61,870 bases of DNA, taken from the sequence record SRR22947727_1620; one strand, written 5' to 3'. The notes below the pieces were generated by a model, which saw only the letters and a list, made by a program, of their open reading frames with translations, was not told the DNA's origin and made no database searches. The stretch's first letter is position 1; each line of letters opens with the position of its first letter. The translations under genes and the position numbers were made by a program. Positions 459-15,718 of this stretch are shown one piece after another.

Positions 459-1397
459 ATGTTAGACGCTTTGTATATTGTATTGGGATTGGTAGCCTTA
501 ATCTTTGGAGGAAACTGGTTGTTGAAAGCAGCTGTAGCCCTTTCACTAAGGTTAAAGATTCCTAAAATTGTCATTGGAATGACCGTGGTGTCTTTTGCCA
601 CTTCTGCGCCGGAGCTTATAGTGAGTATAAAAGCAGCTTTGGATGGTTTTCCAGACCTTTCTTTGGGGAATGTTATTGGGTCTAATATAGCTAATTTGGG
701 ATTGGTGCTCGGAATTACTTTATTACTAGGAACTATCGAGGTGACCAAGAGTTTTTACAAAACAGATTGGCCTGTGATGTTTTTAGCCTCAATAATCTTC
801 TTCGCTTTTCTTTATATAGACGGTGAGTTGGTTTTCTGGGAAGGTCTTGTAATGTTTTCCATGTTATTGGTCTTTTTATGGTACTTACTTCGCAACCAAG
901 ATAATGCAGTTATAGATGAATTGCCAGAAGATGACATACCCTTACCACTGCACAAGACTTTATTATTTATGGTGCTGGGTGGTCTAGGACTTTGGGGAGG
1001 TTCAGAGTTGTTAATTTCTGGGGCGGTAGGTTTGGCTACTTTTTTTGGAGTGTCTGAGCGAATAATAGGAATTACGATTGTTTCTGTGGGCACCAGTGTG
1101 CCTGAATTGGCGGCCTCTGTTATTGCGGTATTGAAGAAGGAGAAGGCTATTTCTCTTGGAAACTTACTGGGGTCTAATATCTTTAATATTTTTGCTGTTT
1201 TGGGCATTACAGCCATGATTACCCCAATAAAAGTGATGGATCAGGCACTTTTGGAATCTGACATTTATTGGATGCTGGGTTTTGCGTTTATATTACTTCC
1301 CTTAGTTTTTGTGCCTAGTAAAATGAGATTGGGTTGGAGGGACGGCCTTATTTTACTCGCTGCTTATGCAGCTTTTATTTATGTGACTATTTCTTAG
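459..1397 (+). CDS. Calcium/sodium antiporter (YrbG/CaCA family)
   Basis: Two alpha-repeats (ATSAPEL..GNVIGSNIAN; GTSVPEL..GNLLGSNIFN). Start moved to ATG 459 behind TATATTTG at 436-443. Confidence 0.92.
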   Translation: MLDALYIVLGLVALIFGGNWLLKAAVALSLRLKIPKIVIGMTVVSFATSAPELIVSIKAALDGFPDLSLGNVIGSNIANLGLVLGITLLLGTIEVTKSFYKTDWPVMFLASIIFFAFLYIDGELVFWEGLVMFSMLLVFLWYLLRNQDNAVIDELPEDDIPLPLHKTLLFMVLGGLGLWGGSELLISGAVGLATFFGVSERIIGITIVSVGTSVPELAASVIAVLKKEKAISLGNLLGSNIFNIFAVLGITAMITPIKVMDQALLESDIYWMLGFAFILLPLVFVPSKMRLGWRDGLILLAAYAAFIYVTIS

Positions 1398-1402
1398 GGA
1401 GC

Positions 1403-1437
1403 AAAAAAAAAGGCATCCGCTTTAGCGAACACCTTTT
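1403..1437 (-). terminator. Intrinsic terminator of the GSII gene
   Basis: Minus strand GGTGTTCGCT-AA-AGCGGATGCC (G-U pairs work only on this strand) followed by a T run. Confidence 0.65.
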
Positions 1438-1460
1438 AAGTAATAAGTGTAAGTATGTTT

Positions 1461-2474
1461 TTAAGAAATATTGGCAGACTTTACAGTCTTTATAATACGT
1501 CCGGCAATTTTATATGGATCTCCGTTAGACGCTGGTCTTCTGTCTTCCAACCAACCTTTCCATCCTTTTTCTACAGTGATAATAGGAATTCTAATAGAAG
1601 CCCCACGATCAGATACCCCGTAGCTAAAGTCTTTGATAGAAGCAGTTTCGTGTAAACCAGTCAAACGTTGGTCGTTAAACTCACCGTATACTTCAATGTG
1701 TTCTTTAACAACTGGTCTAAATGCTTCACATATTTTCTCATAAGTTTCTTTAGAACCACAAGTTCTAAGGACTGTATTAGAGAAGTTTGCATGCATACCA
1801 GAACCATTCCAGTCTCCTTTTATAGGTTTTGGGTGGTATTCAATATAGTATCCATATTTTTCTGTCAATCTGTCTAATAAGTAACGTGATACCCAGATTT
1901 CATCTCCAGCCCTTTTGGCGCCTTTGGCAAACAATTGGAATTCCCATTGCCCGCTAGCTACTTCTTGGTTTATACCTTCAAAGTTTAATCCAGCGTCAAT
2001 ACACAAGTTAGCGTGCTCTTCTACAAAGCTTCTTCCATGGGTATTTCTCCCGCCAACAGAACAGTAATACATACCTTGTGGCCCAGGGTAACCTCCCACT
2101 GGAAATCCTAAAGGCAATTGGGTATTCTTGTCCATGATAAAATATTCTTGTTCGAAACCGAACCAGAAATCATTGTCGTCGTCATCTATTGTAGCTCTTG
2201 CATTAGAAAGGTGTGGTGTACCGTCTGCATTTAAAACTTCTGTCATGACTAAATAACCATCTCTTCTTGCTGGATCTGGATAAATAGCTACTGGCTTTAA
2301 TAAACAATCAGAAGAACCTCCTTCAGCTTGTTTCGTAGAACTTCCGTCAAAAGACCATATTGGACAGTCTTCTAACTTTCCAGAGAAGTTTTCTTCTACT
2401 TTTGTTTTACTTCTTAAGTTGGCTGTTGGTTTATAACCATCTAACCAAAGGTATTCTAATTTAGATTTACTCAT
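1461..2474 (-). CDS. glnII: Glutamine synthetase type II
   Basis: EYLWLDG, WSFDGSST, FGFEQEY, GINQEVASGQWEFQ, DWNGSGMHANFS, RLTGLHET, RGASIRIP, LEDRRPASNGDPY; 337 aa from MSKSK. Confidence 0.93.
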   Translation of the reverse strand: MSKSKLEYLWLDGYKPTANLRSKTKVEENFSGKLEDCPIWSFDGSSTKQAEGGSSDCLLKPVAIYPDPARRDGYLVMTEVLNADGTPHLSNARATIDDDDNDFWFGFEQEYFIMDKNTQLPLGFPVGGYPGPQGMYYCSVGGRNTHGRSFVEEHANLCIDAGLNFEGINQEVASGQWEFQLFAKGAKRAGDEIWVSRYLLDRLTEKYGYYIEYHPKPIKGDWNGSGMHANFSNTVLRTCGSKETYEKICEAFRPVVKEHIEVYGEFNDQRLTGLHETASIKDFSYGVSDRGASIRIPIITVEKGWKGWLEDRRPASNGDPYKIAGRIIKTVKSANIS

Positions 2475-2523
2475 GAGTTGATTGTTTAAGTTTAACGACC
2501 CTATAAAATTATAATATTTTGAC

Positions 2524-2600
2524 ATAGCCACAGAAAAAGATGGGGTATTTTATTAAAAAGTTATTAAAAATTTCTGACCCCTATGTTTTTTAGGGGGTAA
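2524..2600. promoter_or_regulatory. Two copies of a candidate nitrogen-regulon operator in the glnII/GSIII divergent promoter region
   Basis: ATAGCCACAGAAAAAGATGGGGTAT (2524-2548) and GACCCCTATGTTTTTTAGGGGGTAA (2576-2600) both align with the palindrome at 14506-14530. Confidence 0.65.
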
Positions 2601-2656
2601 ATTGCAAATACTATATTTATTTGGTTTTATTTTGCAGTATTGATAATTGACTATTT

Positions 2657-4852
2657 ATGAAAACAGATTTCTCCCAACTTAGATTCAATGCTTTAGCGCA
2701 AAGTTCACAGCAAATGTCTGTGCCTGTGAGCGAACCCAATAGAAGGTCTTCCCTTTTTGGGAGCCATGTTTTTAATGACTATAAGATGCTACAATACCTC
2801 ACAAAGGATGCTATTGGTGCTGTTAGAGATGCAATCACTTCAGGCAGTAAGATTGACAGAAAATTAGCAGATCAGGTGGCTGAGGGTATGAAAACATGGG
2901 CCATAGAAATGGGGGCAACGCATTACACCCATTGGTTTCAGCCTTTAACAGGTGCAACCGCAGAAAAACATGACGCTTTTTTTGATATTCAAGATGGCCA
3001 AGCTTTAGAAATCTTTGGTGGGGCTCAATTGGTGCAGCAAGAACCAGACGCCTCTAGTTTTCCAAGTGGAGGCATTAGAAATACCTTTGAGGCAAGGGGT
3101 TACACTGCTTGGGATCCTAGTTCTCCAGCTTTTGTTTATGGGACTACACTTTGTATACCCACTATTTTTGTTTCTTATACAGGAGAAGCATTGGACAATA
3201 AAGCACCTTTACTTAGGGCTTTAAATGCTGTAGATGAAGCAGCTACCGCTGTAGCTAAATATTTTGACAAAACAGTTACAAAGGTAAACGCAACCTTAGG
3301 GTGGGAGCAAGAGTATTTCTTAATTGACAAATCGTTGGCTACGGCCAGAATAGACATTACGCTTACAGGAAGGACGCTATTGGGCCATACGGCTGCCAAA
3401 GGACAGCAATTAGAAGACCACTACTTTGGTGTTATTCCCTCTAGGGTTATTGGTTTTATGAGTGAGCTGGAGAAGGAGTGTATGGTTTTGGGAATTCCAG
3501 TAAAAACTAGACACAATGAGGTGGCACCAAACCAATTTGAATTGGCGCCAGTTTTTGAAGAAGCCAATTTAGCGGTAGACCATAACCTTCTTTTAATGGA
3601 TGTCATGGATAAGGTTGCAGACAAGCACCATTTAAAAGTGTTGTTTCACGAAAAACCTTTTGCAGGAATAAATGGCTCTGGAAAACACAACAATTGGTCA
3701 CTTGCTACAGATACGGGTATTAATTTATTGAGCCCAGGTTCTACGCCAATGAAGAATTTACAGTTTCTGACCTTTTTTATTAATACCATTAAAGCAGTAG
3801 ACACATATGAATCGTTGTTAAGGTCTTCTATTGCTTCTGCTAGTAATGACCACAGATTAGGTGCCAATGAAGCGCCACCTGCTATTTTTTCTATATTTAT
3901 TGGGAAACAACTCTCTGCAGTTTTAGATGAATTAGAAGGGGTGTCTTTGGGTAAATTATCACCAGAAGAAAAAACAGAACTCAAGCTCAATGTAGTGGGT
4001 AAAATTCCTGAAATACTCATGGATAATACGGACCGCAACAGGACTTCTCCCTTTGCCTTTACGGGCAATAAATTTGAGATGAGGGGCGTGGGGTCAAAAA
4101 CCAACTGCGCTAAGCCTATGACGGTCTTAAACACTGCTGTAGCCCAACAATTGCGGTTGTTTAAAAAAGAAGTAGACAGCTTAATAGACCAAAAAGGGCT
4201 CAAGAAAGATGAGGCCATATTCAATGTATTAAGGGAGTATATAAAATCTTCTAAGCGCATTCGTTTTGAGGGAGATGGGTACAGTGAGGCTTGGGAGCAA
4301 GAAGCGGCAAAAAGAAAACTCAGTAATCTCAAGACCACACCAGAGGCAGTTGCTGTAATGAGTGAAAAATCCAATGTGACTTTGTTTGATCAGATGGGTG
4401 TGTTAAGTCCTATTGAATTAAAGGCCAGACAAGAAGTGGAGTGGGAAGCTTATGTGATGCATACCCAAATTGAAGGCAGGGTGTATGAGGAGTTGGTGTA
4501 CAGTCAGATTTTACCATCTGCCGTAGGCTATATGAATGTGTTGCTAGAGAATCTAAGTAAAATGAATACGGTAATGGAGCAGGTGACTGCCTTAAAAGAG
4601 AGCGCTCAAGGACAGCTGTTTTCTGAAATTAATAAGTATGTGCAGGACTTAAAAATAAGTGTAGACAATATGACTCAGGCCAGAAAAGCAGCCAATAAAT
4701 TAGCTAGTTCAAGCGACAGGGCTCACGCCTATGCTTTTGAGGTAAAACCTTTGTTTGAAGTCATTAGATCTAATTCAGATCAGTTAGAAAAACTCATGAG
4801 TGACAGCCACTGGCCGCTATTAAAATACAGAGAACTCTTGCAAATTAGATAG
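2657..4852 (+). CDS. Glutamine synthetase type III
   Basis: 731 aa; ATHYTHWFQPLTG, EPDASSFPSGG, LGWEQEYF, HNEVAPNQFE, NGSGKHNNWS, RLGANEAPP, DRNRTSPFAFTGNKFE. Confidence 0.95.
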   Translation: MKTDFSQLRFNALAQSSQQMSVPVSEPNRRSSLFGSHVFNDYKMLQYLTKDAIGAVRDAITSGSKIDRKLADQVAEGMKTWAIEMGATHYTHWFQPLTGATAEKHDAFFDIQDGQALEIFGGAQLVQQEPDASSFPSGGIRNTFEARGYTAWDPSSPAFVYGTTLCIPTIFVSYTGEALDNKAPLLRALNAVDEAATAVAKYFDKTVTKVNATLGWEQEYFLIDKSLATARIDITLTGRTLLGHTAAKGQQLEDHYFGVIPSRVIGFMSELEKECMVLGIPVKTRHNEVAPNQFELAPVFEEANLAVDHNLLLMDVMDKVADKHHLKVLFHEKPFAGINGSGKHNNWSLATDTGINLLSPGSTPMKNLQFLTFFINTIKAVDTYESLLRSSIASASNDHRLGANEAPPAIFSIFIGKQLSAVLDELEGVSLGKLSPEEKTELKLNVVGKIPEILMDNTDRNRTSPFAFTGNKFEMRGVGSKTNCAKPMTVLNTAVAQQLRLFKKEVDSLIDQKGLKKDEAIFNVLREYIKSSKRIRFEGDGYSEAWEQEAAKRKLSNLKTTPEAVAVMSEKSNVTLFDQMGVLSPIELKARQEVEWEAYVMHTQIEGRVYEELVYSQILPSAVGYMNVLLENLSKMNTVMEQVTALKESAQGQLFSEINKYVQDLKISVDNMTQARKAANKLASSSDRAHAYAFEVKPLFEVIRSNSDQLEKLMSDSHWPLLKYRELLQIR

Positions 4853-4957
4853 TCTTCTTTAAGATTGTTTGTTATTGAGGATAAGTTTTGGGAATATTAT
4901 GCTACAATAGCTTGAACTTTTTAAGGATTCCCTTATTTTTGCACAAAACACGAATGA

Positions 4958-6136
4958 ATGGATTCAAATCAACAGGGAAGGTATAGTCAAAGAGGTGTTT
5001 CAGCAGCAAAGGAAGACGTGCATAATGCTATAAAGAATATAGATAAAGGGCTGTTCCCTAAGGCTTTTTGTAAAATTGTACCTGACCACCTTACTGGAGA
5101 TTTAGACTATTGTTTGGTCATGCATGCAGATGGAGCAGGAACTAAATCTTCCTTGGCCTATATGTACTGGAAACAAACTGGAGACCTTTCGGTTTGGAAG
5201 GGCATTGCTCAGGATGCGTTGATTATGAACATAGATGACCTTATTTGTGTAGGCGCCACGGACCATATTATGTTGTCTTCTACCATTGGTAGGAATAAAA
5301 ATTTAATTCCCGCTGAGGTGCTTTCTGCCATTATTAATGGCACGGAGAAACTCATAGAAGACCTTTCAAAACACGGTATTATTATTCATAGTACTGGCGG
5401 TGAAACCGCCGATGTTGGCGATCTAGTACGTACCATCATTGTAGATTCTACCGTAACGGCGCGTTTACCAAGAAAAAACGTCATAGACAACGCTAATATT
5501 AAAGCAGGAGATGTTATTGTAGGTTTGTCTTCTTCAGGACAAGCTACCTATGAGACCGAGTACAACGGAGGAATGGGAAGTAATGGACTAACTTCTGCAC
5601 GTCATGATGTTTTTGGTCAAGATTTGGCAAAAAAATTCCCTGAAAGTTTTGATCCTGCTGTTCCTGGTGAGTTGGTTTATTCGGGTGCACTAGGACTCAC
5701 AGATTCAGTGGAAGGAAGTCCAGTAAATGCTGGTAAGTTGGTACTTTCACCAACAAGAACTTATGCGCCAATTGTAAAGAAAATATTGGGTAAATACAAT
5801 GCAGAGGACATTCATGGAATGGTACATTGTAGTGGTGGTGCTCAAACAAAAATCTTACATTTTGTAGAAGGCCTTCATATTATTAAAGACAATATGTTTG
5901 AAGTGCCTGTGCTTTTTAAAATGATTCAGGAACAATCCAAAACACCTTGGAGAGAGATGTACGAAGTTTTTAACTGCGGTCATAGATTGGAGTTGTATGT
6001 AAACCCAGCAGTAGCAGAAGATTTAATCGCTATTTCTGCTTCTTTTGGTGTAGCCGCTCAAATCATTGGAAGGGTAACGGACAGTGAGATTAAAAAACTA
6101 ACTATAGAGAGTTCTTACGGAACTTTTGAATATTAA
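4958..6136 (+). CDS. purM: Phosphoribosylformylglycinamidine cyclo-ligase (AIR synthase), Bacteroidota type
   Basis: MHADGAGTKS, GGETADVG, SNGLTSARH, LSPTRTY, HCSGGAQTK, VFNCGHR. Confidence 0.9.
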   Translation: MDSNQQGRYSQRGVSAAKEDVHNAIKNIDKGLFPKAFCKIVPDHLTGDLDYCLVMHADGAGTKSSLAYMYWKQTGDLSVWKGIAQDALIMNIDDLICVGATDHIMLSSTIGRNKNLIPAEVLSAIINGTEKLIEDLSKHGIIIHSTGGETADVGDLVRTIIVDSTVTARLPRKNVIDNANIKAGDVIVGLSSSGQATYETEYNGGMGSNGLTSARHDVFGQDLAKKFPESFDPAVPGELVYSGALGLTDSVEGSPVNAGKLVLSPTRTYAPIVKKILGKYNAEDIHGMVHCSGGAQTKILHFVEGLHIIKDNMFEVPVLFKMIQEQSKTPWREMYEVFNCGHRLELYVNPAVAEDLIAISASFGVAAQIIGRVTDSEIKKLTIESSYGTFEY

Positions 6137-6182
6137 GAAGGTCAATTTATTGTACCTTTACTTGAATAACTAGCTCAAATTT

Positions 6183-7259
6183 ATGTTAGAAAAATTACAT
6201 GTTGTAAAACAGCGTTTTGACGAAGTATCAGACTTGATTATCCAGCCAGATATCATTCAAGATCAAAAGCGTTATGTTCAGCTCAACAAAGAATACAAGG
6301 ACCTAAAATCACTCATGGACAAAAGAGAATTATACATCTCTTTTACCAATAATATTGAAGAGTCTCAGGAGATTATTGATGATGGTTCAGATGCTGAAAT
6401 GGTAGAAATGGCCAAAATGCAGTTAGATGAAGCCAAAGCTGCACTACCCGCTTTGGAAGAAGAAATTAAGTTTTTGCTCATCCCAAAAGAACCAGAAGAC
6501 GCCAAGAATGTTGTGGTGGAGATTCGCGCTGGTACTGGAGGAGATGAAGCCAGTATTTTTGCTGGAGATCTTTTTAGAATGTACACCAAATACTGTGAGT
6601 CTAGAGGATGGAAAACCAATGTGATTGACCTAAGTGAAGGGACTTCCGGAGGGTATAAAGAGATACAGTTCGAGGTTAATGGAGAAGATGTATATGGAAC
6701 GCTAAAATTTGAAGCAGGTGTTCACCGGGTTCAAAGGGTACCTCAAACAGAGACACAAGGTAGGGTCCATACGAGTGCTGCTACTGTTATGGTGCTTCCT
6801 GAAGCAGAGGAATTTGACGTTCAAATAGATCCAAAGGATGTGAGAATAGATTTCTTTTGTTCCTCAGGACCAGGAGGACAATCTGTAAACACGACCTATT
6901 CTGCCGTGAGGTTAACACACCTTCCAACTGGTTTGGTGGCACAGTGTCAAGACCAAAAATCCCAACACAAAAATAAAGACAAAGCCTTTGTAGTGCTTAG
7001 GTCTAGGCTATACGATATGGAATTGGCTAAAAAGCAAGAAGCAGACGCAGCCAAAAGAAATTCTCAAGTAAGTTCAGGAGATAGGTCTGCAAAAATTAGA
7101 ACCTACAACTACCCTCAAGGTAGGGTCACAGACCACCGTATAGGACTAACCTTGTATGACTTACAGAATATTGTAAATGGAGACATTCAAAAGATTTTGA
7201 GTGAGTTAATGCTTGTAGACAATACAGAGAAATTGAAAGAAGCTTCAGAGATTTTTTAG
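6183..7259 (+). CDS. prfA: Peptide chain release factor 1
   Basis: [12 protein letters not shown] (PxT recognition loop), [22 protein letters not shown]. Confidence 0.97.
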
Positions 7260-7311
7260 TCTCACAGCTTTAATACCATAATCTGGTGTAGTACCAGTGA
7301 AAAAATTAATC

Positions 7312-8139
7312 ATGACGCTTCCTTTCTTAATAAATCAGATTGAAAAAAAATCATCTTTCCTTTGCGTGGGACTAGATGTAGATTTAGATAAAATCCCAGC
7401 CCACCTTTTAAAAGAAGCGGACCCTATATTTGCTTTTAATAAAGCCATTATAGACGCCACCCATTCTTATGCGGTAGCTTATAAGCCCAATATGGCTTTT
7501 TATGAAGCCTATGGCGTTAAGGGATGGTTGGCATTAGAAAAGACCATTCAATATTTGAATCAAAATTATCCAGAGCTCTTTACTATCGCAGACGCTAAAA
7601 GAGGTGATATTGGTAATACAGCTAGTAGGTATGCCAAAGCTTTTTTTGAAGATTTAGGATTTAATTCCATTACGGTAGCACCATATATGGGTAAGGATTC
7701 GGTAGAGCCTTTTTTAGCTTTTGAAGACAAATTCACTATTTTATTAGGACTTACCTCAAATCCAGGTGCTGCAGATTTTGAAATGTTGCCTATGGCTAAT
7801 GGCAAATATTTGTATGAAACAGTGATTGAAACAGCCGCCCAATATAAAAACGCCCACCAATTAATGTATGTGGTTGGGGCTACACAGGCCAATGCTATAA
7901 AAGACATTAGAGCTTTGGTTCCAGATAGTTTTCTGTTGGTTCCGGGTGTGGGTGCTCAAGGAGGCAGTTTAGCAGAAGTTTGCTCAGAAGGTCTTAATGA
8001 CCAAGTAGGTTTATTGGTGAATTCCTCTAGGGGTATTATATACGCTTCTTCAGGAGAAGATTTTGCTTTGGCAGCAGCAGGACAGGCTGCTCTTTTGCAG
8101 GCTGAGATGGCAACTATTTTAAGTCAAAAGAAAAATTAA
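7312..8139 (+). CDS. pyrF: Orotidine-5'-phosphate decarboxylase
   Basis: [39 protein letters not shown] 7312 preferred as start. Confidence 0.95.
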
Positions 8140-8212
8140 TTCCCTAATTTAGGGGAATACTTGCCAAACCATTGGCTAAAACCATTTTATTGATCTCATA
8201 AATTCCCTCGTA

Positions 8213-8992
8213 TTGATTCATTACAATTGTTACAGAAATCCAGAAGCCCAAGAGTGGGTTACTTTTGTTCATGGTGCTGGAGGGAGTTCTTCTATTTGGT
8301 TTAAACAATTAAAAGCTTTTAGAAAGATTTATAACGTGCTTCTTCTAGATCTAAGAGGGCACGGAGATTCTAAAATGCCCTTGAAACAAGCTTTTGATAA
8401 AAAGTATACTTTTAACGCCATTACCCAGGATATTATTGAAGTTTTGGATTATGAAAAGATTGAAAAATCACACTTTATAGGTATTTCACTGGGGACTATA
8501 TTGATTAGAAATCTTGCTGAAAAAAAGCCAGAACGCGTGCTGAGTATGATTATGGGTGGGGCTATTTTAAAACTTAATTTTAGGTCACAAGTGCTTATGC
8601 GTTTGGGGGTGATGTTTAAGTCTGTAGTGCCTTATTTGTGGTTGTACTCTTTTTTTGCTTTTGTGATTATGCCCAATAAAAACCATAGAGAATCCAGAAC
8701 ACTTTTTGTTAGAGAAGCTAAAAAACTGTATCAGAAAGAGTTTATAAAGTGGTTTAAGCTCACTGCAGAAATAAACCCTTTGCTTCGTTTTTTTAGAAAT
8801 GTTGAGGTGAAGATCCCTACACTTTATGTCATGGGCGCAGAAGACTATTTGTTTTTGCCTTCTGTAAGAAAAATGACTGAGACACATTTGTCAGCATCTT
8901 TATTTGTGGTAGAATCTTGTGGTCATGTAGTGAATGTAGAGCAGCCAGAAGTCTTTAATACAGCGGTAATTTCTTATTTAGGAAAGCTCTAG
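8213..8992 (+). CDS. Alpha/beta hydrolase
   Basis: FVHGAGG, DLRGHG, GISLG nucleophile elbow, C-terminal GH; TTG start. Confidence 0.85.
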   Translation: MIHYNCYRNPEAQEWVTFVHGAGGSSSIWFKQLKAFRKIYNVLLLDLRGHGDSKMPLKQAFDKKYTFNAITQDIIEVLDYEKIEKSHFIGISLGTILIRNLAEKKPERVLSMIMGGAILKLNFRSQVLMRLGVMFKSVVPYLWLYSFFAFVIMPNKNHRESRTLFVREAKKLYQKEFIKWFKLTAEINPLLRFFRNVEVKIPTLYVMGAEDYLFLPSVRKMTETHLSASLFVVESCGHVVNVEQPEVFNTAVISYLGKL

Positions 8993-9130
8993 TATTATTT
9001 CTAATAAACCAGTGTTTCTAGTCCCATTAATATTTAAAACTATTATTAGCCTACTTTGTTAAACTAATTAATCTTGGGTCACTATTCGGACTTAACTTTT
9101 AAGCTGCTATCTAATTTCCTTATTAAACCG

Positions 9131-9158
9131 ATAAAACCAGCGTCTCCACCGGTTTTAT
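9131..9158 (-). terminator. Hairpin/terminator downstream of the 9230-9622 gene
   Basis: Minus strand ATAAAACCGGTG-GAGA-CGCTGGTTTTAT: GNRA loop, and G-U pairs valid only on the minus strand. Confidence 0.6.
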
Positions 9159-9229
9159 ACTGACTAAATCTAAAAAAATAATGAAAAAATATTCTCGCTC
9201 GTTACCTTTATAACGCATTAATTTTGTCA

Positions 9230-9622
9230 TTATTGTGCTGGCCCAGATGTTTTGGACCATTTTTGGAATAGCAGCATAAATTGCTTTACCTCATTCCTGT
9301 AGGCGTCAAGATAATCTTGAGGAGATTTACTGTGGTACTCTAAACCCCTACAATAGCCATGAATATTTTTTCCGATACAGTTTATGAAATTCAAAATGTT
9401 TTTTCGCTCTTCAAGATTGTGAACAAAGGAGAGGTGTTTTAGGCTGCTCAAAAGTTCTTTGCTGTCTCCAATAAGGCTGTGAAGAATACTGTGGTTAAAA
9501 TTCCAGTATTTATAACCTTTAAGGAGCTCATAGTCATAATAGAAATAGCCCGCCAAAGCATTGCTGAGCCGCTCCAATTCAGTGGCTTTATGTTCTAAGT
9601 GCTTTGGTGTTTTAGTATTCAT
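9230..9622 (-). CDS. Hypothetical protein (130 aa) divergent from the Lrp/AsnC regulator
   Basis: Non-overlapping ORF with a downstream hairpin; no family recognised. Confidence 0.6.
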   Translation of the reverse strand: MNTKTPKHLEHKATELERLSNALAGYFYYDYELLKGYKYWNFNHSILHSLIGDSKELLSSLKHLSFVHNLEERKNILNFINCIGKNIHGYCRGLEYHSKSPQDYLDAYRNEVKQFMLLFQKWSKTSGPAQ

Positions 9623-9739
9623 TAACTAGGAATATGGTCTTGATGTAAAAATAAAGGTATTTAGAGATGGATTAATTTACTTTATATAGGTATATTTTAT
9701 TTATTCTTTATATTGCAATTTATTTAAACATATTTTCTT

Positions 9740-10186
9740 ATGATTAAAAAGTTAGATCTCTTAAATAATAAGATTGTTGCTGCTTTACAAAAAAATGCCA
9801 GGGTGTCTTTTGCAGAAATAGGAAGGCTGGTGGGTTTAACACCGCCAGCTGTAGCGGAACGGGTAAAAAAATTAGAAGACACCTCGGTTATATTGAAATA
9901 TCATACAGAGGTATCCTATACGCAGATGGGGTATCAGCTGAAGGCGATGATTACTTTAAGGGCTTTTGTAGGTAAATTGAAACCTTTTTTGGAGGTGGTA
10001 AAATCCTATCCTGAGGTGGTAAACTGCTACCGGATTACTGGAAATGAAAACATTATGATGGAGGTGGTTCTTAAAGACCAACAACACTTAGAGAAATTTA
10101 TAGATAAACTCATCCAATATGGTGAAACTAGGACGCATATTATTTTGTCAGAGGTAGTTTCATCTGCACCTATATATGCCATTTAA
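9740..10186 (+). CDS. Lrp/AsnC family transcriptional regulator
   Basis: LQKNARVSFAEIGRLVGLTPPAVAERVKKLE HTH; CYRITG effector-binding domain motif. Confidence 0.93.
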   Translation: MIKKLDLLNNKIVAALQKNARVSFAEIGRLVGLTPPAVAERVKKLEDTSVILKYHTEVSYTQMGYQLKAMITLRAFVGKLKPFLEVVKSYPEVVNCYRITGNENIMMEVVLKDQQHLEKFIDKLIQYGETRTHIILSEVVSSAPIYAI

Positions 10187-10208
10187 TCTCTTTGGGTTAT
10201 ATTTGAGT

Positions 10209-10889
10209 ATGAATTACAGATACTTCCTTGCGTCATTTTTATTTGTGTTTTTAAGCTTTAATGCGGTTAAAGCCCAAGCTGTTATTTCTGAAAAGCAGGC
10301 AGAAAGAGCCATCAAAAAAGAACAAAGGCAATTGAAGCGAATGAATCGCCAGTATACAGATTCTCTTACTTATAAGGCAGAGTATTATCAGTATATGCTC
10401 TTAGAGGACTTAGATACAAGAAATTTTGAAAATTTGGGTTGGTGGCAGTATCAATATAATTACTACAACAGCGTCATTGAATCTGCTCCCGAGAATCTCT
10501 CAGCAAAGGCACTTATTGTAGATAGATTTGCTAAAAATGTGATTGTTTTAATGGTGTCTATGCTTAGAAGGGTCTACGACATTGAGGCCAACAGACCAGC
10601 CGCTATTAGGGATATTCCTGCAGTCGTTTTTTTATTGATGCTTAGGACTATTGTTCATCCAGAAGACTATGTGGCCTATTTGGCTGTGATTTCTTATAGT
10701 AGTAAGATGGAAGATTACGGAACAGCGCTATTCTATGTAGAAGCACTTTTAGAAAATGGATATACAGATTTAGACACCCTTGGCGCACTTCCAGAAACAG
10801 GTTTACTAAGGATAATGCCTGAATACCAAGCCTTATTAGAAGTGTATTTAAATAAAGGGTTGTATGGGATTAGAGAAGAGGATTCGTAG
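10209..10889 (+). CDS. Secreted helical (TPR-like) hypothetical protein
   Basis: Signal peptide ending AVKA-Q; C-terminal ALFYVEALLENGY helix pattern; TATATTTG at 10198-10205 supports ATG 10209. Confidence 0.65.
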   Translation: MNYRYFLASFLFVFLSFNAVKAQAVISEKQAERAIKKEQRQLKRMNRQYTDSLTYKAEYYQYMLLEDLDTRNFENLGWWQYQYNYYNSVIESAPENLSAKALIVDRFAKNVIVLMVSMLRRVYDIEANRPAAIRDIPAVVFLLMLRTIVHPEDYVAYLAVISYSSKMEDYGTALFYVEALLENGYTDLDTLGALPETGLLRIMPEYQALLEVYLNKGLYGIREEDS

Positions 10890-10915
10890 TATTGTATTAA
10901 AGAATAAAGGATTGT

Positions 10916-11617
10916 ATGGTATTAGAGAAGCGGATTCATAGTGGTGTACTATTTGTGATTATGGGTCATTTTTTTTTAATGACCTCTTGTAAGCAACCCA
11001 AAAAATACCATGATGCTGAAGACCAAAGGGCAAGCATAGTGGGTGAAGGGGTTTTAAATACTCTAGGAGAAAGGGATAGTATCCTTCAATCTGTTTTGGA
11101 TTTTCAAAAAGAATTAAACGCTTCATTTAAAGATCCTGAGGCGTCTCCCTTGGTAGATAAGGATAAAATGAATTTCCAAGGTTTGGATTATTTTTTACCA
11201 AATGTAGATTTTGTGGTTAGGGCTAAATTGATTAAAACCCCTAATGCACTTCCGTTTGGTATGCCTACAACTACAGATAGAATCTCTCAAGAGCGGGTGT
11301 ATGGGCGTCTGTATTTTAATTTGAAGGGAAACCCCTTTTCTTTAGAAGTATACCAGAGTTTGGATCTATTGGAAAAGGAAGGCTATGAGGATTATTTATT
11401 TCTTCCCTTCAAAGACCTCACTAATGGCAATGAAACTTACGGTGGCGGCAGGTATTTAGATTTGAGAACGGTACAGGGAGATTCTATTTGGATAGACTTT
11501 AATAAATCTTATAATCCGTATTGTGCCTACAATAAAAAATATTCATGCCCGGTAGTACCTTCGCAGAATGATTTAGAAATTTCTATCAAAGCAGGTGTTA
11601 AAGTGTTTGTAAAATAA
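10916..11617 (+). CDS. DUF1684 family protein (probable lipoprotein)
   Basis: LFLPFKDLTNGNETYGGGRYLD and DFNKSYNPYCAYN..YSCP motifs; lipobox-like MTSC. Confidence 0.88.
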   Translation: MVLEKRIHSGVLFVIMGHFFLMTSCKQPKKYHDAEDQRASIVGEGVLNTLGERDSILQSVLDFQKELNASFKDPEASPLVDKDKMNFQGLDYFLPNVDFVVRAKLIKTPNALPFGMPTTTDRISQERVYGRLYFNLKGNPFSLEVYQSLDLLEKEGYEDYLFLPFKDLTNGNETYGGGRYLDLRTVQGDSIWIDFNKSYNPYCAYNKKYSCPVVPSQNDLEISIKAGVKVFVK

Positions 11618-11651
11618 AAAAAACCAGTCTTTGGAGAAGACTGGTTTTTTT
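11616..11651. terminator. Bidirectional intrinsic terminator
   Basis: A-run + CCAGTCTT-TGGAG-AAGACTGG + T-run between convergent genes. Confidence 0.85.
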
Positions 11652-11695
11652 AAACTAAACTTAACTAATACCTATCCCTTAATGCAATGGAGGAA

Positions 11696-12754
11696 TTAAA
11701 AGGCATAAACTGCTGCTAGTACAAAAGAAGATAGGCTCTTTTGCGGCGCAAATTTTGTATCCAAAAAGCTTTCGTCAGAACCATTATCTATTCTAATTTC
11801 TGGCTTTAAAATAAGGTTTCCTATTGATGCACTTCCTGTAAGGGTTAAAGCAAACACGCTAGAATCTGCTACACCACTATCTGTTTGGTCAATGGCTCCA
11901 TAAGCACCACTTTCTACAAAGTATTCTCCTCTTAAGCCAATGGCAAAAGTGTCTGAAGTGGTTAATTGCGGGTAAAGTGCTACTCCTGAGAATCCAACAC
12001 CGTCATTGTCATAAATGGCACCGTTGAGTCCTAAGTAAAAATTATCTGTAACGGAAAAACCTCCAGTGTAATCCAATTCATAAGCACCGCTATCTGTTAA
12101 TAAATTAAGGAATTGACCTTTGTATCCAAGTTGCGCTCCAAAAGCATAAATTCCTGTTGGGTTGTATTCTGTCAGATCTGTTGGGTTAAAGATTCCAAGC
12201 ATGGCAGAGAAGTCTTCACTCAGTGCAAAATCTGCTTTTATTCCAGTATGGCTAAAAGGTCCGTAAGAGAATAAGTATGAGGTACTGTAGTTGAAATTTG
12301 CTGCTGGAGATATTACTTCGTAGCCTAAAAAGGTGTTAAAATTACCCATGGTTAGAGTAACCTTATCGCTCACGTTCCAATACATATATAATTGGTTTAC
12401 AATATTTCCGGTTGCAGAATACATGGGGGAGTTAAAAATAGCATCTGTACCTCTTGGTCCAAAGACTAAGTCTGCTACGAATCCAACTTTTTCCCCTTCG
12501 TAAGCTGCTACTACATTGGCCATACCTAAAGCAAATCCTGGTAAATTAGCAAATGAGCTTCCAGGAGCCATAGTGTTTTCTCCTACATTTGGAGCGTTTA
12601 AATTACCTCTGAAATAAGCGTCTACCGTTCCACTAATGCTAAATTTTGGTGTGGTTTCTTCTTCTGCCTCTTGAGCGAAAGTTAATGTTGTTGCTGTTAA
12701 TGCTGCACTTAGCATTAAAAATTTTGCGTTATTTGTGAAAGTTTTAAAAATCAT
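11696..12754 (-). CDS. Outer-membrane beta-barrel porin, last gene of the glnB-amtB operon
   Basis: Signal peptide (TFA-Q), alternating beta-strand pattern, GNFNTFLGYEVI, C-terminal aromatic YAF. Confidence 0.8.
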   Translation of the reverse strand: MIFKTFTNNAKFLMLSAALTATTLTFAQEAEEETTPKFSISGTVDAYFRGNLNAPNVGENTMAPGSSFANLPGFALGMANVVAAYEGEKVGFVADLVFGPRGTDAIFNSPMYSATGNIVNQLYMYWNVSDKVTLTMGNFNTFLGYEVISPAANFNYSTSYLFSYGPFSHTGIKADFALSEDFSAMLGIFNPTDLTEYNPTGIYAFGAQLGYKGQFLNLLTDSGAYELDYTGGFSVTDNFYLGLNGAIYDNDGVGFSGVALYPQLTTSDTFAIGLRGEYFVESGAYGAIDQTDSGVADSSVFALTLTGSASIGNLILKPEIRIDNGSDESFLDTKFAPQKSLSSFVLAAVYAF

Positions 12755-12761
12755 GAGAATT

Positions 12762-12821
12762 TGGTTTTAAATGGTTTTAAATGGTTTTTAACAAACGGAG
12801 CGTTCTGCAAAACGCTCCGTT
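12762..12821. repeat. Three tandem 10-bp TGGTTTTAAA units plus an 11-bp inverted repeat between amtB and the porin gene
   Basis: Units start at 12762, 12772 and 12782 (the last is imperfect); AACGGAGCGTT-CTGCAA-AACGCTCCGTT at 12794-12821. Confidence 0.8.
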
Positions 12822-12841
12822 GCTATTTATATAGGTTTTGT

Positions 12842-14086
12842 TTAGTGTTGGTTCAATCTAAAATCAGCATATGCATCCATGCCGTGTTCGTGAAGGTCTA
12901 AGCCTTCTAATTCTTCTTCTTTAGATACCCTTATTCCTCCTGTTTTCTTGATAGTGAAAAGGATGATAAATGCAGATATAGTACAGAAGGTAGCTGTGGC
13001 TCCTACGCCTGCTAGTTGGTAAAGGAATTGATCCATTCCTGCTTTTGCACCAAATACTCCAACAGCAAGTGTTCCGAAAATACCACATATTAGGTGTACC
13101 GCTACTGCTCCTACAGGGTCATCTAGTTTAATTTTATCTATAAAAGCTACTGCTAAAACGATGAGGGCTCCGGCCAATAATCCAATCACAACAGATTCGT
13201 TTGGAGACATTAGATCTGCTCCTGCGGTAATACCTACTAAGCCTCCTAGAATTCCGTTAAGGAACATGGTAAGGTCGTAATTTTTGTATAAGATTGTGGA
13301 AAGGATAAATGCGCCAATTCCACCCGCTGCTGCTGCTAAAGATGTTGTTACAAGCACTAAAGAAGTTCCTGCTGGGTCCGCAGATAAAACAGACCCACCG
13401 TTAAATCCAAACCAACCCAACCACAAGATAAGTACTCCAGCTGCTGCTAAAGGAATGTTGTGTCCTGGTATGGCTTGCGCTTTTCCACTTTCAGAAAATT
13501 TACCAATTCTAGGGCCTAGAAGGTATATGGCTATTAATGCAGCCCAACCACCAACAGAGTGTACTAGTGTAGATCCAGCAAAGTCGTGAAACCCGCCATT
13601 TTCGCCACCTATTGTGCTTAAAAATCCACCACCCCACTGCCAAGATCCTACGATAGGATATACAAGACCTACATATATTAGGGTAAAAATCATGAAACCA
13701 CCCAACTTAATACGTTCTGCTACAGCTCCTGAAACAATGGTTGCTGCAGTTGCGGCAAACATTCCTTGGAAGAGAAAATCAGTCCAGTAGGTGTATCCGC
13801 CAGAGGCGTAATCAGGGGTTAGTCCATTTTCAGGGAGCGGGATTCCAAATCCTGCAAACCCAAGATATCCATTGAAATCTCCAGGGTACATTAGGTTAAA
13901 CCCGCCTATATAGTAAAGTAATAATCCAGTACAAATAATGAATACATTCTTAAATAATATATTAATTGTGTTTTTTTGTCTGGTTAATCCAATCTCTAAA
14001 AAAGAGAATCCTAGGTGCATGAAAAATACCAAAGCGGTACATACCATCATCCATACGTTATTTGCTGTAAATATTGCTGTTTCCAT
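12842..14086 (-). CDS. amtB: Ammonium transporter
   Basis: FQGMFAATAATIVSGAVAER, DFAGSTLVHSVGGW, LWLGWFGFNGGS, DDPVGAVAVH. Confidence 0.97.
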   Translation of the reverse strand: METAIFTANNVWMMVCTALVFFMHLGFSFLEIGLTRQKNTINILFKNVFIICTGLLLYYIGGFNLMYPGDFNGYLGFAGFGIPLPENGLTPDYASGGYTYWTDFLFQGMFAATAATIVSGAVAERIKLGGFMIFTLIYVGLVYPIVGSWQWGGGFLSTIGGENGGFHDFAGSTLVHSVGGWAALIAIYLLGPRIGKFSESGKAQAIPGHNIPLAAAGVLILWLGWFGFNGGSVLSADPAGTSLVLVTTSLAAAAGGIGAFILSTILYKNYDLTMFLNGILGGLVGITAGADLMSPNESVVIGLLAGALIVLAVAFIDKIKLDDPVGAVAVHLICGIFGTLAVGVFGAKAGMDQFLYQLAGVGATATFCTISAFIILFTIKKTGGIRVSKEEELEGLDLHEHGMDAYADFRLNQH

Positions 14087-14113
14087 TTTTATATTCTTTT
14101 TGAGTAATCTGTA

Positions 14114-14452
14114 TTAGTTTATGCCTGCTTTTCCATTCTCTCTTGTCCTTATTCTATACGCGTCTTGTACATCAGAAACAAAAATCTTACCGTCTCCTAC
14201 ATTTCCTGTACTGGCGGCTTCCAAAATGGTATTTATAGTCGGTTCTAGAAATTCATCAGAAATTACTATGGAAAGTATTCTCCTTTGAATGTCAGAAGTA
14301 CTGTAGCTAATGCCTCTGTAGACATGTCCTTGCTTTTCATTTCCAACGCCGGTTACGTCCCAGTAGCTAAAGAAGTTAACCTCTATGGCGTGAAGGGCTT
14401 TTTTGACGTCGTCAAATTTTGATTTTCTAATAATGGCTTCCACTTTTTTCAT
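14114..14452 (-). CDS. glnB: P-II nitrogen regulatory protein (GlnB/GlnK)
   Basis: 112 aa; MKKVEAIIR, T-loop YRGISY, TGNVGDGKIFVS, RIRT; directly upstream of amtB, so GlnK-like by position. Confidence 0.92.
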   Translation of the reverse strand: MKKVEAIIRKSKFDDVKKALHAIEVNFFSYWDVTGVGNEKQGHVYRGISYSTSDIQRRILSIVISDEFLEPTINTILEAASTGNVGDGKIFVSDVQDAYRIRTRENGKAGIN

Positions 14453-14505
14453 AATGGGACTGTTATTTATGGGTTAATACGAAGTAAACTTATGTATTTG
14501 TAATT

Positions 14506-14582
14506 ATACCCCCTAATTTTTAGGGGGTATTGTATTAATTATTATTATATAAACAAAATATACCCTAAAAAAATGAGGGTAT
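14506..14582. promoter_or_regulatory. Palindromic operator candidates upstream of glnB-amtB-porin
   Basis: Perfect 11-3-11 inverted repeat ATACCCCCTAA-TTT-TTAGGGGGTAT (14506-14530); 7-9-7 ATACCCT-N9-AGGGTAT (14560-14582). Confidence 0.75.
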
Positions 14583-14681
14583 CATTTTTTTAGGGCCCGA
14601 AAATTGAGTGTGTGAATGAAAAAATAGGGGGGTACCCACAATAAAATGAGTGCTACTAATAAAAACAGAAATTATTTTTAA

Positions 14682-15065
14682 CTAGATTGCTTTTGCTGTG
14701 TGTAGACCAAGCGAAATGGCTAGTATACCTATTATGATACTAGAAAGGGTGTAGAAAGTAAATTCTAGTATTTGTCCATTTTTGAGAAAAGCTTGATTTT
14801 CGAATGCAAATGTAGAAAAGGTGGTAAACCCTCCACAAAGCCCTATGGCTAAAAATGAATATAGGGGAGCACTTGCCAAAGCTGGGTTTTTATAACTTAA
14901 GCCAATAATAAGACCTAATAGTAAGCAACCTATAATGTTTACACCAAAGGTACCCCAAAAAAAATGGTCGCTCAATGGATTACCTATTTTGCTAAGCCCA
15001 TATCTTAGTATGGTACCAAAGCCTCCGCCTATAAATAATGCAGTCATGGTTTTTAGCTGCTCCAT
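14682..15065 (-). CDS. crcB: Fluoride efflux channel Fluc/CrcB
   Basis: GGGFGTILRY, GTFGVNIIG, GLCGGFTTFSTF. Confidence 0.93.
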   Translation of the reverse strand: MEQLKTMTALFIGGGFGTILRYGLSKIGNPLSDHFFWGTFGVNIIGCLLLGLIIGLSYKNPALASAPLYSFLAIGLCGGFTTFSTFAFENQAFLKNGQILEFTFYTLSSIIIGILAISLGLHTAKAI

Positions 15066-15067
15066 AT

Positions 15068-15256
15068 TTAAGACTTTAAATATGTTTTCAAAACAAAAAG
15101 CAATAAAATAAAAAGGATAAAACCAAGGAGTAGCTTTAAAACCCCTTTAAAATTTTTTTGGTGTTGGGCACGCTCTTTTTTGAAAGCCATTACAATGGCA
15201 ACCACAAAAGAAATGGCAAAAAGCACTGCGAACACTATTTGTCCTTTACTAAACAT
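15068..15256 (-). CDS. Small two-helix membrane protein (62 aa)
   Basis: MFSKGQIVFAVLF... with two hydrophobic segments; TAGCTTTG promoter element just upstream; stop lies 2 nt from the crcB start. Confidence 0.7.
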   Translation of the reverse strand: MFSKGQIVFAVLFAISFVVAIVMAFKKERAQHQKNFKGVLKLLLGFILFILLLFVLKTYLKS

Positions 15257-15331
15257 ATTCCTATTTTTACACAAAGCTACATTAAATAATGCAAACCTTT
15301 TTTGTGTTTTAATGTTCATTAAATAAATATT

Positions 15332-15718
15332 ATGAAAGATAAATTAGACGCGGTTGCCGCTTTTCATACGGCATTCAAGATAGGTTATGCTAAATCACCA
15401 ATAGCCAGTTTAGGAGCGCAAAAAAATCAATTGCGCTTTTCTTTAATGGAAGAGGAAAACAAAGAGTATTTAGAAGCGGCGCAGAACAATGATCTAGTAG
15501 AGGTGGCAGACGCATTGGGAGATATGCTTTACATATTATGCGGGACCATTATTGAGCATGGAATGCAGGATAAGATTGAGGCTGTTTTTAACGAAATACA
15601 AAAGTCCAATATGAGTAAACTAGGGGAAGACGGCGCACCCATATATAGGGAAGATGGAAAAGTTTTAAAAGGACCAAATTATTTTAAGCCCAATCTAAAG
15701 GCTATTTTGGAAGAATAA
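15332..15718 (+). CDS. MazG-like nucleoside triphosphate pyrophosphohydrolase
   Basis: EEENKEYLEA..EVADALGDMLY, SNMSKLG, DGKVLKGPNY. Confidence 0.88.
   Translation: MKDKLDAVAAFHTAFKIGYAKSPIASLGAQKNQLRFSLMEEENKEYLEAAQNNDLVEVADALGDMLYILCGTIIEHGMQDKIEAVFNEIQKSNMSKLGEDGAPIYREDGKVLKGPNYFKPNLKAILEE

Follow-up and report, generated by a model that had tools for sequence, protein, structure and literature searches.

Palindromic boxes upstream of ammonium-assimilation genes as candidate operators of a nitrogen regulon in flavobacteria

Introduction

Do the GC-cored palindromes that precede the nitrogen-assimilation genes of a flavobacterial DNA stretch act as operators of a common regulator, and would such a regulator activate or repress? 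Flavobacteria are among the main degraders of marine organic matter, and nitrogen often limits them. In the literature that we searched, we found no description of a transcriptional nitrogen regulator for flavobacteria, and full-text searches returned no description of the motif. The window studied here, the whole 61,870-nt stretch from sequence record SRR22947727_1620, carries a divergent pair of glutamine synthetase genes and a glnB-amtB-porin operon (Table 1). An initial annotation had proposed that a dimeric regulator, possibly an activator, controls these genes through the boxes, and our analysis supports the reading as a nitrogen-regulon operator.

Boxes in the window

The motif reads tACCC-N11/12-GGGTa with an A/T-rich spacer; as an operator, it consists of two inverted half-sites of consensus tACCCct separated by 7-8 bp of A/T-rich sequence. 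On re-reading, all boxes and -7-like elements were found where they had been placed, and our calls for GSII, GSIII, P-II, AmtB and the BBP2 porin agree with the earlier ones. The start codon of GSII is probably the ATG at 2474.

Table 1. Features of the two nitrogen-assimilation loci in the window.
Feature	Position	Strand	Sequence	Basis
GlnII-type glutamine synthetase (GSII)	1461-2474	minus		gene call; domain search
-7-like element of GSII	2504-2511	minus	TAATTTTA	
Degenerate box facing GSII	2524-2548		ATAGCC...ATGGGGTAT	read directly
Box facing GSIII	2576-2600		GACCCCTATG-TTTT-TTAGGGGGTA	read directly
-7-like elements of GSIII	2612-2623	plus	TATATTTA (2612-2619) or TTTATTTG (2616-2623)	
Type III glutamine synthetase (GSIII)	2657-4852	plus		gene call; domain search
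glnB-amtB-porin operon	11696-14452	minus		Pfam + NCBIfam
BBP2 porin	11696-12754	minus		Pfam + NCBIfam
amtB	12842-14086	minus		Pfam + NCBIfam
glnB (P-II)	14114-14452	minus		Pfam + NCBIfam
-7 element of glnB operon	14485-14492	minus	TAAGTTTA (consensus TAnnTTTG)	
Promoter-proximal glnB box	14506-14530		ATACCCCCTAA-TTT-TTAGGGGGTAT (perfect 11-3-11 palindrome)	read directly
Distal glnB box	14560-14582		ATACCCT-N9-AGGGTAT	read directly
Third array position	14613-14635		half-site TAGGGGGGTA only (14624-14633)	

Upstream of glnB, the dyad centre of the proximal box lies about 25.5 nt upstream of the -7 element. This corresponds to about -37.5, a position that depends on placing the start by its match to the -7 consensus, the window's three -7 elements being non-consensus. 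The predicted transcription start falls near 14480, given that the Bacteroidetes -7 box occupies -12 to -5 according to a passage of PMC9723704. The distal box is centred 53 bp further upstream (about -90.5), and the half-site at the third array position lies about 51.5 bp upstream of the distal box. This half-site is also present in the relative genome G001, and its G run carries one extra G in four metatranscriptome runs.

Between the two glutamine synthetase genes, the GSIII box has TTTTTAGGGGGTA in common with the proximal glnB palindrome and is 52 bp away from the GSII box. The latter, read on the minus strand, keeps its promoter-distal half, TACCCC, and its proximal half is degenerate, an asymmetry that recurs in relatives. 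The profile scan of the window missed this box; its position and the conservation of the distal half in relatives suggest that it may be a degenerate operator. The three -7-like elements first described (TAAGTTTA, TATATTTA and TAATTTTA) are present, 13, 11 and 12 bp from their boxes, respectively. For GSIII, however, TTTATTTG fits the conserved geometry better than TATATTTA when compared with GSIII and ald promoters of relatives. The GSII element is separated from its 18-nt core by 16-17 nt, in agreement with the geometry of the family.

The exact 9-mer TAGGGGGTA occurs four times in the window, three times in the two promoter regions and once inside a coding region at 35690; with one mismatch allowed, it was not enriched in the window (15 found against 11.9 expected). 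We also scanned the 61.9-kb window with a whole-box profile, with filters off, and obtained 21.4 bits at 14504-14531, 17.5 at 14557-14582 and 12.3 at 2577-2602, a result that is not fully independent, as G001, the nearest genome, contributed near-identical boxes to the profile. The next best score was 9.8 bits, leaving these three boxes as the only strong matches in the window. The boxes are real and lie far beyond chance expectation.

Conservation and geometry in relatives

Most genera sampled in the host's family have the motif before glnB-amtB-porin and before the GSII/GSIII pair, as expected if the proposal was right. Boxes were found in 18 of 30 glnB upstream regions from different genera, with two boxes in 14; the 12 regions without a box were mostly operon-internal. 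Among the GS intergenic regions, 24 of 30 contained a full box and four more contained half-sites.

The geometry is conserved as well. Orthologous proximal glnB boxes of 14 genera stand at the same place, and 45 of 56 boxes measure 17-18 nt from the start of the C run to the end of the G run. A -7 box could be recognised in 15 glnB promoters; it is separated from the G-run end by 17 nt in 12 of them and by 15-16 nt in the remaining three. The same 17-nt gap was observed in GSII promoters, in half-site GSIII promoters and in several ald promoters. The near-fixed position claimed for the window thus holds in relatives as a fixed distance to the -7 box, with the value adjusted to 17 nt in most of them when measured from the outer ends of the C/G runs. 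Neighbouring glnB boxes are spaced 52.5-54 bp centre to centre, equivalent to five helical turns, in all 14 genomes (14/14). In some genera the half-site TAGGGGGTG stands alone, still 17 nt from the -7 box, and GSII and ald promoters retain the distal half alone. In another family of the class, GGGGTR is repeated directly, again with a period of 53 bp.

Many -7 boxes of relatives match the TAnnTTTG consensus, and a -33 TTG was not seen at its usual place in these promoters. The pattern of a half-site with a -7 box at 14-16 nt showed no genome-wide enrichment over its control. In the relative G175, just 20 nt separate the end of the ald box from the ATG, a location that would suit a repressor. 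By eye, the position flanking ACCC in distal glnB boxes often changes symmetrically, which fits a stem.

Regulon content across genomes

We built a profile from boxes upstream of glnB and GSIII that had been chosen by a CCC...GGG rule, scanned it against 61 genomes and examined the 118 best sites. A total of 95 adjoin ammonium-assimilation genes, so that the motif is not scattered irrespective of gene function. Of the 118 sites, 44 are no more than 4.5 kb from glnB and 34 no more than 600 nt from a GSIII start, counts that are partly circular because the training boxes were picked at those two loci. All of the remaining 40 sites were examined, and 17 of them are upstream of gltB (9), alanine dehydrogenase (7) or a lone amtB (1), genes that had no part in profile building; two of the nine gltB sites lie in the gltB/porin divergent region and one was inferred from synteny at a contig end. 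About nine of the non-nitrogen matches are ordinary terminators that share this core.

Genomes from which no training site had been taken yielded 47 top sites, 30 of them at glnB or GSIII. Five further genomes had their best match upstream of GSIII (3), ald (1) or amtB (1). We also fetched 20 regions with strict-pattern matches in three complete genomes; the 19 matches outside glnB/GS were all inside an open reading frame or a plain terminator, and the twentieth was the operon site of G036. The best explanation of these distributions would be a regulon comprising glnB-amtB-porin, GSIII, GSII, gltB and alanine dehydrogenase.

RNA data

In one marine metatranscriptome, contigs over GSII and porin-amtB-glnB had 30-50 times the depth of neighbouring-gene contigs, which weakly hints at the operator reading. 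These contigs do not reach the boxes, ending at 2474 and 14460. Relative to the predicted starts, 14460 is 20 nt and 2474 is 25 nt downstream; the two ends could reflect RNA processing, library artefacts or true transcription starts, and in the last case the dyads would lie near -58 and -62.

Proposed regulator and alternative readings

From sequence comparison, we consider it probable that the boxes are operators of one putative sequence-specific, nitrogen-responsive regulator of the family's ammonium-assimilation regulon, acting mainly as a class-II-type activator that would replace a missing -33 element. The sites have the arrangement of class-II activator sites: a fixed distance to the -7 box, coverage of the -33 region and the absence of an upstream promoter element of their own, with activation itself being predicted. 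Because 17 nt separate its end from the sigma-A -7 box, the proximal operator would cover approximately -49 to -28.

We infer that the factor, presumably a dimer, would bind under nitrogen limitation and cooperatively along the phased array. Once bound, it would recruit RNA polymerase, standing in for the missing -33 contact. Upstream operators and half-sites follow every five helical turns (about 52.5 bp) on the same helix face, and any box of the divergent GSII/GSIII and gltB/porin regions could be proximal for one promoter and distal for the other.

The same operator and regulon might instead serve a repressor that occupies the -33 region while nitrogen is abundant and so keeps RNA polymerase out, with the phased distal sites allowing looping or cooperative occupancy; we regard this as unlikely, while taking it seriously. 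Overlap of the box with the polymerase contact region would suit a repressor too, the many consensus -7 boxes of relatives imply that those promoters might work unaided, and the ald box of G175 is placed where a repressor could act. Looping repressors, moreover, typically use two phased sites. However, the distance to the -7 box is fixed within 1-2 nt across promoters and genera, a constraint needed by activators and not by repressors, and this spacing is kept even in promoters with a half-site only. The absence of a -33 TTG at the usual place and the weakness of the window's own -7 elements also argue against repression.

A reading in which the boxes work as nucleic-acid hairpins, either intrinsic terminators of upstream genes or leader/attenuator structures in nitrogen-gene mRNA, appears very improbable. 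The segment 14500-14536 does fold at -16.7 kcal/mol (z -3.7), on the minus strand the distal glnB box and its T-rich tail are scored as a weak intrinsic terminator serving crcB, and both the symmetric changes beside ACCC and the terminators among the profile matches point the same way. The proximal glnB palindrome, however, scores as a terminator on the plus strand only, pointing away from any gene end, and the GS boxes lie between divergent genes, where there is nothing to terminate. Hairpins would not account for boxes upstream of a conserved -7 box or for lone half-sites and direct repeats at the same positions, and the 52.5-bp phasing and 17-nt gap would be meaningless for them. No consensus pair emerged when the box alignment was folded with RNAalifold, and a search of positions 1-18000 gave no Rfam match at the boxes (E up to 1). 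That the abundant RNA contigs end short of the boxes weighs slightly against hairpins in the mRNA.

It is equally hard to credit that the G-run half-site itself belongs to the promoter, as an atypical -33/-35 contacted by a sigma factor with no separate regulator involved. Genera with TAGGGGGTG alone at its fixed distance from the -7 box would fit such a contact, whereas the downstream element is the usual sigma-A -7 box, the one half retained by GSII and ald promoters is that far from it, and neither full palindromes nor phased copies 53 and 106 bp upstream would be expected. Finally, chance proximity of a dispersed REP- or MITE-like repeat can be practically dismissed, since only the palindromic shape favours it and the genomes contain about 2-15 profile matches each (E up to 0.5), most of the best at nitrogen genes, with three copies in the window and no flanking repeat structure.

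Three candidates for the putative regulator were considered. The nearby AsnC gene and Rrf2 were tested and look unlikely. One GerE response-regulator group, common to four small genomes and absent from a genome with a 26.5-bit box, also looks unlikely.

The operator would define a precise regulon of amtB/P-II/porin, both glutamine synthetases, GOGAT and alanine dehydrogenase. It could provide a bait sequence for fishing out the regulator and a marker for reading nitrogen stress in metatranscriptomes. If the activation reading is true, it would also give a well-delimited case of promoters that depend on an activator within the unusual Bacteroidetes -33/-7 system.

Comparison with known nitrogen-control systems

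As first reported, the boxes fit none of the consensus sites of NtcA, NtrC or TnrA/GlnR. NtcA, a class-II activator, binds the palindrome GTA-N8-TAC near -41.5, where it overlaps or replaces the -35 element of glnA, glnB and amt promoters. The promoters described here resemble these cyanobacterial ones in having a palindromic site in the -35-type region and a similar regulon content. However, the sequence is unrelated, with no GTA-N8-TAC in the boxes, which read TAC...GTA with 15-17 bp between the triplets, and the site spans 19-22 bp, against 14 bp for NtcA. They further differ in their extra sites at five-turn steps, their lineage and their -33/-7 promoter type, and no NtcA-type factor was linked to the boxes.

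NtrC/sigma-54 promoters combine -24 GG/-12 GC elements with upstream TGCACC-N5-GGTGCA enhancer sites. By eye, we saw no GG-N10-GC in the right orientation in 14453-14681 or 2475-2656; here, in contrast, a sigma-A TAnnTTTG -7 box lies at a fixed distance.

The Bacillus boxes for TnrA/GlnR (TGTNA-N7-TNACA) likewise have inverted half-sites, of 5 bp, and an A/T-rich spacer of about 7 bp. Our half-site is a different sequence, tACCCct, with no TGTNA in the boxes, and our site is 2-5 bp longer. TnrA activator sites also lie further upstream than the boxes here. TnrA and GlnR control GS, amtB-glnK and gltAB-type genes, activating or repressing according to site position. Parts of PMC3412718 and PMC9249791 give the same background.

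The half-site resembles that of Escherichia coli NarL/NarP, whose heptamer is given as TACYYMT in a section of PMC4886647 and is fitted by tACCCct. Among our 112 half-sites, 21 match TACYYMT fully and 80 match nACYYMn, with positions 3-5 (CCC) fixed by the selection rule. An engineered high-affinity NarL site is TACCCCT-AA-AGGGGTA, and NarL also uses single heptamers or other arrangements and activates from about -38 to -49, according to passages of PMC4549865. The spacer between our heptamers is 6-10 bp (7-8 bp in 45 of 56 boxes) and not the 2 bp of the 7-2-7 arrangement, so the geometry of the NarL C-terminal dimer cannot apply. The regulon also differs, comprising ammonium assimilation and not nitrate respiration.

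In the extent of its regulon, the putative factor would be similar to actinomycete GlnR, a single regulator for amtB-glnK, GS, GOGAT and alanine dehydrogenase; control of ald by GlnR is described in a portion of PMC4140684. GlnR, however, is an OmpR-type protein that binds direct repeats, and its motif and lineage are unrelated. We lean slightly towards the view that Flavobacteriales, and perhaps a larger part of the class Bacteroidia, have a new global nitrogen regulator whose units each read tACCCct, as inverted repeats in the host's family or direct repeats in another, in arrays phased at exactly five helical turns. Such a factor would replace the -33 contact of the Bacteroidetes primary sigma factor and would be separate from NtrBC, NtcA, TnrA/GlnR, AmtR and actinobacterial GlnR.

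Putative operators in the window

The putative nitrogen-regulon operator, hereafter the box, consists of two inverted half-sites with the consensus tACCCct, and candidate sites for its regulator lie upstream of the ammonium-assimilation genes. All box and -7 sequences quoted in the initial annotation were found where it had placed them, and the gene identities it had named (GSII, GSIII, P-II, AmtB and porin) agreed with our gene calls. For GSII, the longest ORF spans 1461-2531, and we list the shorter form indicated by its ATG and by the family alignment. The two box centres are 52 bp apart in the glutamine synthetase (GS) intergenic region and 53 bp apart upstream of glnB.

Genes and boxes of the nitrogen-assimilation regions in the window
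Feature	Position	Strand	Remark
GSII, GlnII-type glutamine synthetase	1461-2474	minus	ATG at 2474 and family alignment
GSIII, type III glutamine synthetase	2657-4852	plus	
P-II (glnB)	14114-14452	minus	
AmtB	12842-14086	minus	
BBP2 porin	11696-12754	minus	
crcB	14682-15065	minus	upstream of glnB, same strand
Main glnB box	14506-14530		perfect 11-3-11 palindrome
Second (distal) glnB box	14560-14582		inverted repeat
Lone third half-site upstream of glnB	14624-14633		TAGGGGGGTA
Good box between GSII and GSIII	2576-2600		
Degenerate box between GSII and GSIII	2524-2548		GSII side

In the region of the fluoride channel gene crcB (14682-15319, minus strand), crcB is preceded by an 83-codon ORF with no Pfam match, and an Rfam scan of window positions 1-18000 with E-values up to 1 returned no fluoride riboswitch.

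We then asked how far the boxes exceed chance expectation. The 9-mer, the exact core common to the main glnB box and the good GS box, occurs four times in the window, three times within the GS and glnB intergenic regions and once inside a dihydroorotate dehydrogenase gene. When one mismatch was allowed it was not enriched (15 observed vs 11.9 expected). In G001, the genome nearest to the window, there are 18 copies vs 2 for the reversed control; because most of them fall in coding sequence, the 9-mer alone is a poor marker and the full dyad is needed. A whole-box profile gave the three good boxes 21.4, 17.5 and 12.3 bits, and no other position on either strand of the 61.9 kb exceeded 9.8 bits; the scan is not fully independent, since the training set includes the near-identical boxes of G001. 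The degenerate GSII box was not detected by this profile.

Conservation and geometry in relatives

The initial annotation had proposed checking whether the motif is conserved in orthologous promoters, and conservation across genera was borne out among relatives sampled as one genome per genus from 61 genera of the family to which the window organism belongs. At least one box was found within 350 nt upstream of glnB in 18 of 30 loci, with two boxes in 14. In the other 12 loci, glnB mostly lies directly behind a porin or amtB coding sequence, and for many of the box-less loci the profile later located paired boxes farther upstream, before the operon. Upstream of GSIII, a full box was present in 24 of 30 loci; of the six others, four have the half-site TAGGGGGT(G/A) alone or repeated in direct orientation. 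In divergent GSII/GSIII pairs, the box on the GSII side retains its promoter-distal half (TACCCCCC) and the near half has decayed, as in the window.

In a phylum-wide sample of GSIII upstream regions, the box also occurred in the order's other family. Elsewhere in the class, one family has GGGGT(G/A) half-sites as direct repeats upstream of GSIII in three of three genomes, with copies 53 bp apart as measured in two genomes and estimated by eye in the third. Nothing comparable was found upstream of GSIII in six further families of the class. Separately, in five of five genomes from four families labelled "same phylum" (L114-L118), the gene whose end lies directly upstream of GSIII is of the Lrp/AsnC type, which suggests an Lrp-type control of GSIII, distinct from the boxes, in those classes.

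The motif can be written as tACCC-N11/12-GGGTa with an A/T-rich middle, in which the outer ends of the C- and G-runs are fixed and the inner ends vary. From the outermost C to the outermost G, the box spans 17-18 nt in 45 of 56 cases (range 16-20). Its position relative to the -7 box, the Bacteroidetes sigma-A element TAnnTTTG, is similarly constrained: among 15 glnB promoters with a TAnnTTT(G/A) box, the last G lies 17 nt from it in 12 and 15-16 nt in three. The same 17-nt gap recurs in GSII promoters, in half-site-only GSIII promoters and in several promoters of ald (alanine dehydrogenase), where the full box is followed by a lone distal half-site 53 bp downstream. In all 14 glnB genomes with two boxes, these are separated by 52.5-54 bp. 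According to the transcription-start map of Flavobacterium psychrophilum (PMC9723704), the sigma-A -7 box occupies -12 to -5; with this reference, the centre of the proximal dyad falls near -37.5 and the dyad spans about -49 to -28, where the usual -33 TTG would be expected. The distal box would then be near -90.5 and the third half-site of the window near -142.

Genome-wide distribution

Enrichment at nitrogen genes, for which the initial annotation had suggested a genome-wide scan, was evident with a profile of 53 boxes run over 61 genomes. A structured covariance model was tried, but the MAFFT alignment yielded no pairs in RNAalifold, and the profile was therefore sequence-only. Ammonium-assimilation genes adjoin 95 of the 118 best distinct sites. 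These comprise 44 sites up to 4.5 kb from glnB, 34 no farther than 600 nt from the start of GSIII, and 17 upstream of genes absent from the profile training, the last identified when all other 40 sites were examined: nine upstream of gltB, encoding the glutamate synthase large subunit (two in a gltB/porin divergent region and one, at a contig end, assigned by synteny), seven upstream of ald, and one upstream of a lone amtB. The remaining 23 were roughly nine ordinary terminators with the same core, ten sites inside ORFs, and four unclear cases. In genomes outside the training set, glnB or GSIII accounted for 30 of 47 top sites, and in five further genomes, one of them from the sister family of the order, the best match preceded GSIII in three, ald in one and amtB in one.

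In six genera (L119, L124, L130, L137, L142 and L149), gltB follows the same acyl-CoA dehydrogenase gene, both on one strand, and the box lies in the spacer between them; this conserved synteny may aid in finding gltB promoters.

We also ran a strict pattern, which recovers 39 of the 56 boxes, on five complete genomes. Of 20 regions inspected in three of them, 19 were matches outside glnB and GS, all located inside ORFs or in plain terminators with A and T tails, and the 20th contained the operon site of genome G036. A pattern of GGGGT, 14-16 nt and TANNTTTR was not enriched over its reversed control in five genomes and gave no new targets.

RNA evidence from metatranscriptomes

The window stretch is present in marine metatranscriptomes as assembled contigs, which are unreliable for transcription starts or levels. 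Depth was flat across genic and spacer regions alike in runs X1, X2 and X5, which may include DNA. In run X10, contig depth was about 1900-2350 for GSII, 325-636 for porin-amtB-glnB, 5-70 for neighbouring genes, and low (about 45) for GSIII. The deep X10 contigs stop at 2474 and 14460, where adapter letters follow, and do not reach the boxes; these ends are 25 and 20 nt, respectively, downstream of where the -7 boxes would place the starts. As a hint only, the X10 depth fits co-expression of two operator-bearing units with the boxes outside the abundant mRNA.

Two variants touch the motif, and both remain within it: all four runs have an additional G at 14626, in the G-run of the third half-site, and X1, X2 and X5 read G for A at 2547 in the GSII box, changing GGGGTA to GGGGTG. 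Elsewhere, relative to the window, the runs carry 10 extra nt at 11650 and lack 10 nt at 12762. Past the porin stop codon, the deep porin-amtB-glnB contig of X10 extends for about 520 nt (11177-11696), reaching into the 3' end of the convergent DUF1684 gene.

Probable operator function and proposed mode of action

The boxes could instead be hairpins, acting as terminators or RNA structures, since the palindromes are predicted to fold well as RNA and the distal glnB box of the window scores as a terminator behind crcB. However, boxes are located between divergent genes and upstream of a conserved -7 box, at a fixed distance from it and with a box-to-box spacing of five turns, and single half-sites or direct repeats can stand at the same positions in their place. 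Moreover, the boxes have no Rfam match, and no consensus pair emerged from their alignment. The distal box, read as an operator, may double as a terminator in the window genome.

Judged from promoter architecture, the factor acting at these operators is probably a class-II-type activator. This is favoured because the -7 spacing is rigid across unrelated promoters and kept in half-site promoters, because a -33 element is absent, and because the -7 elements of the window are weak. A repressor bound to the same site seems unlikely, and all remaining readings taken together are less likely still. Known nitrogen regulators repress at some promoters, and an activator of this kind may do so as well, for example at ald in the genus of G175: in its ald promoter (L182), a mere 20 nt separate the end of the box from the start codon, with a -7-like TAAATTTT immediately upstream of the box, whereas in other genera the full box lies about 115 nt upstream of ald.

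Candidate regulators and comparison with known systems

No regulator gene was found next to any of the 39 extra profile sites inspected. Three candidates (the window's Lrp/AsnC gene, a GerE response-regulator group and Rrf2) were examined, and each looks unlikely. The Lrp/AsnC gene of the window (9740-10186) has no box before it, has orthologues (E up to 1e-20) in only four of nine family genomes of the phylum sample, and shares only 25-30% identity with the Lrp-type genes directly upstream of GSIII in other classes (L114-L118). A sigma-54-dependent response regulator (21516-22685, plus strand) has receiver, AAA+ and lid domains and lacks the DNA-binding helix-turn-helix domain; its top NCBIfam matches are NtrX and NtrC, neither reaching the cut-off. 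Because no -24/-12 promoter was seen at the nitrogen genes of the window, this protein is probably unrelated to the boxes.

Among the near-complete small genomes, G029 has two copies of an Rrf2-family regulator and the other three have one each; in G021 and G115 (L195 and L196), the only Rrf2-family gene is followed by a ScdA/hemerythrin gene. An Rrf2 regulator together with a ScdA-like gene is the layout of the nitric-oxide-responsive NsrR unit. The Rrf2 gene of G021 has an A/T-rich palindrome of its own ahead of it. GerE-type response regulators number one to eight in each small genome, and the orthologous group common to G001, G048, G021 and G029 is absent from G115 despite a 26.5-bit box there.

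The half-sites resemble those of NarL/NarP. The NarL/NarP heptamer TACYYMT (PMC4886647) is fitted by the half-site consensus of the boxes, and an engineered NarL site (PMC4549865) consists of two tACCCct-type heptamers 2 bp apart. In contrast, 7-8 bp separate the heptamers in 45 of the 56 boxes, half a turn more than the 2 bp of NarL, so the dimer geometry of NarL cannot hold for them. The mixture of inverted, direct and single half-sites would suit a helix-turn-helix protein, GerE-type or other, whose DNA-binding domains are flexibly tethered. In the openly available full-text papers searched, we found no description of the motif or of a flavobacterial nitrogen regulator. The operator of a global nitrogen regulator is a well-known kind of element; what appears to be new is the motif, the five-turn arrays it forms and the lineage.
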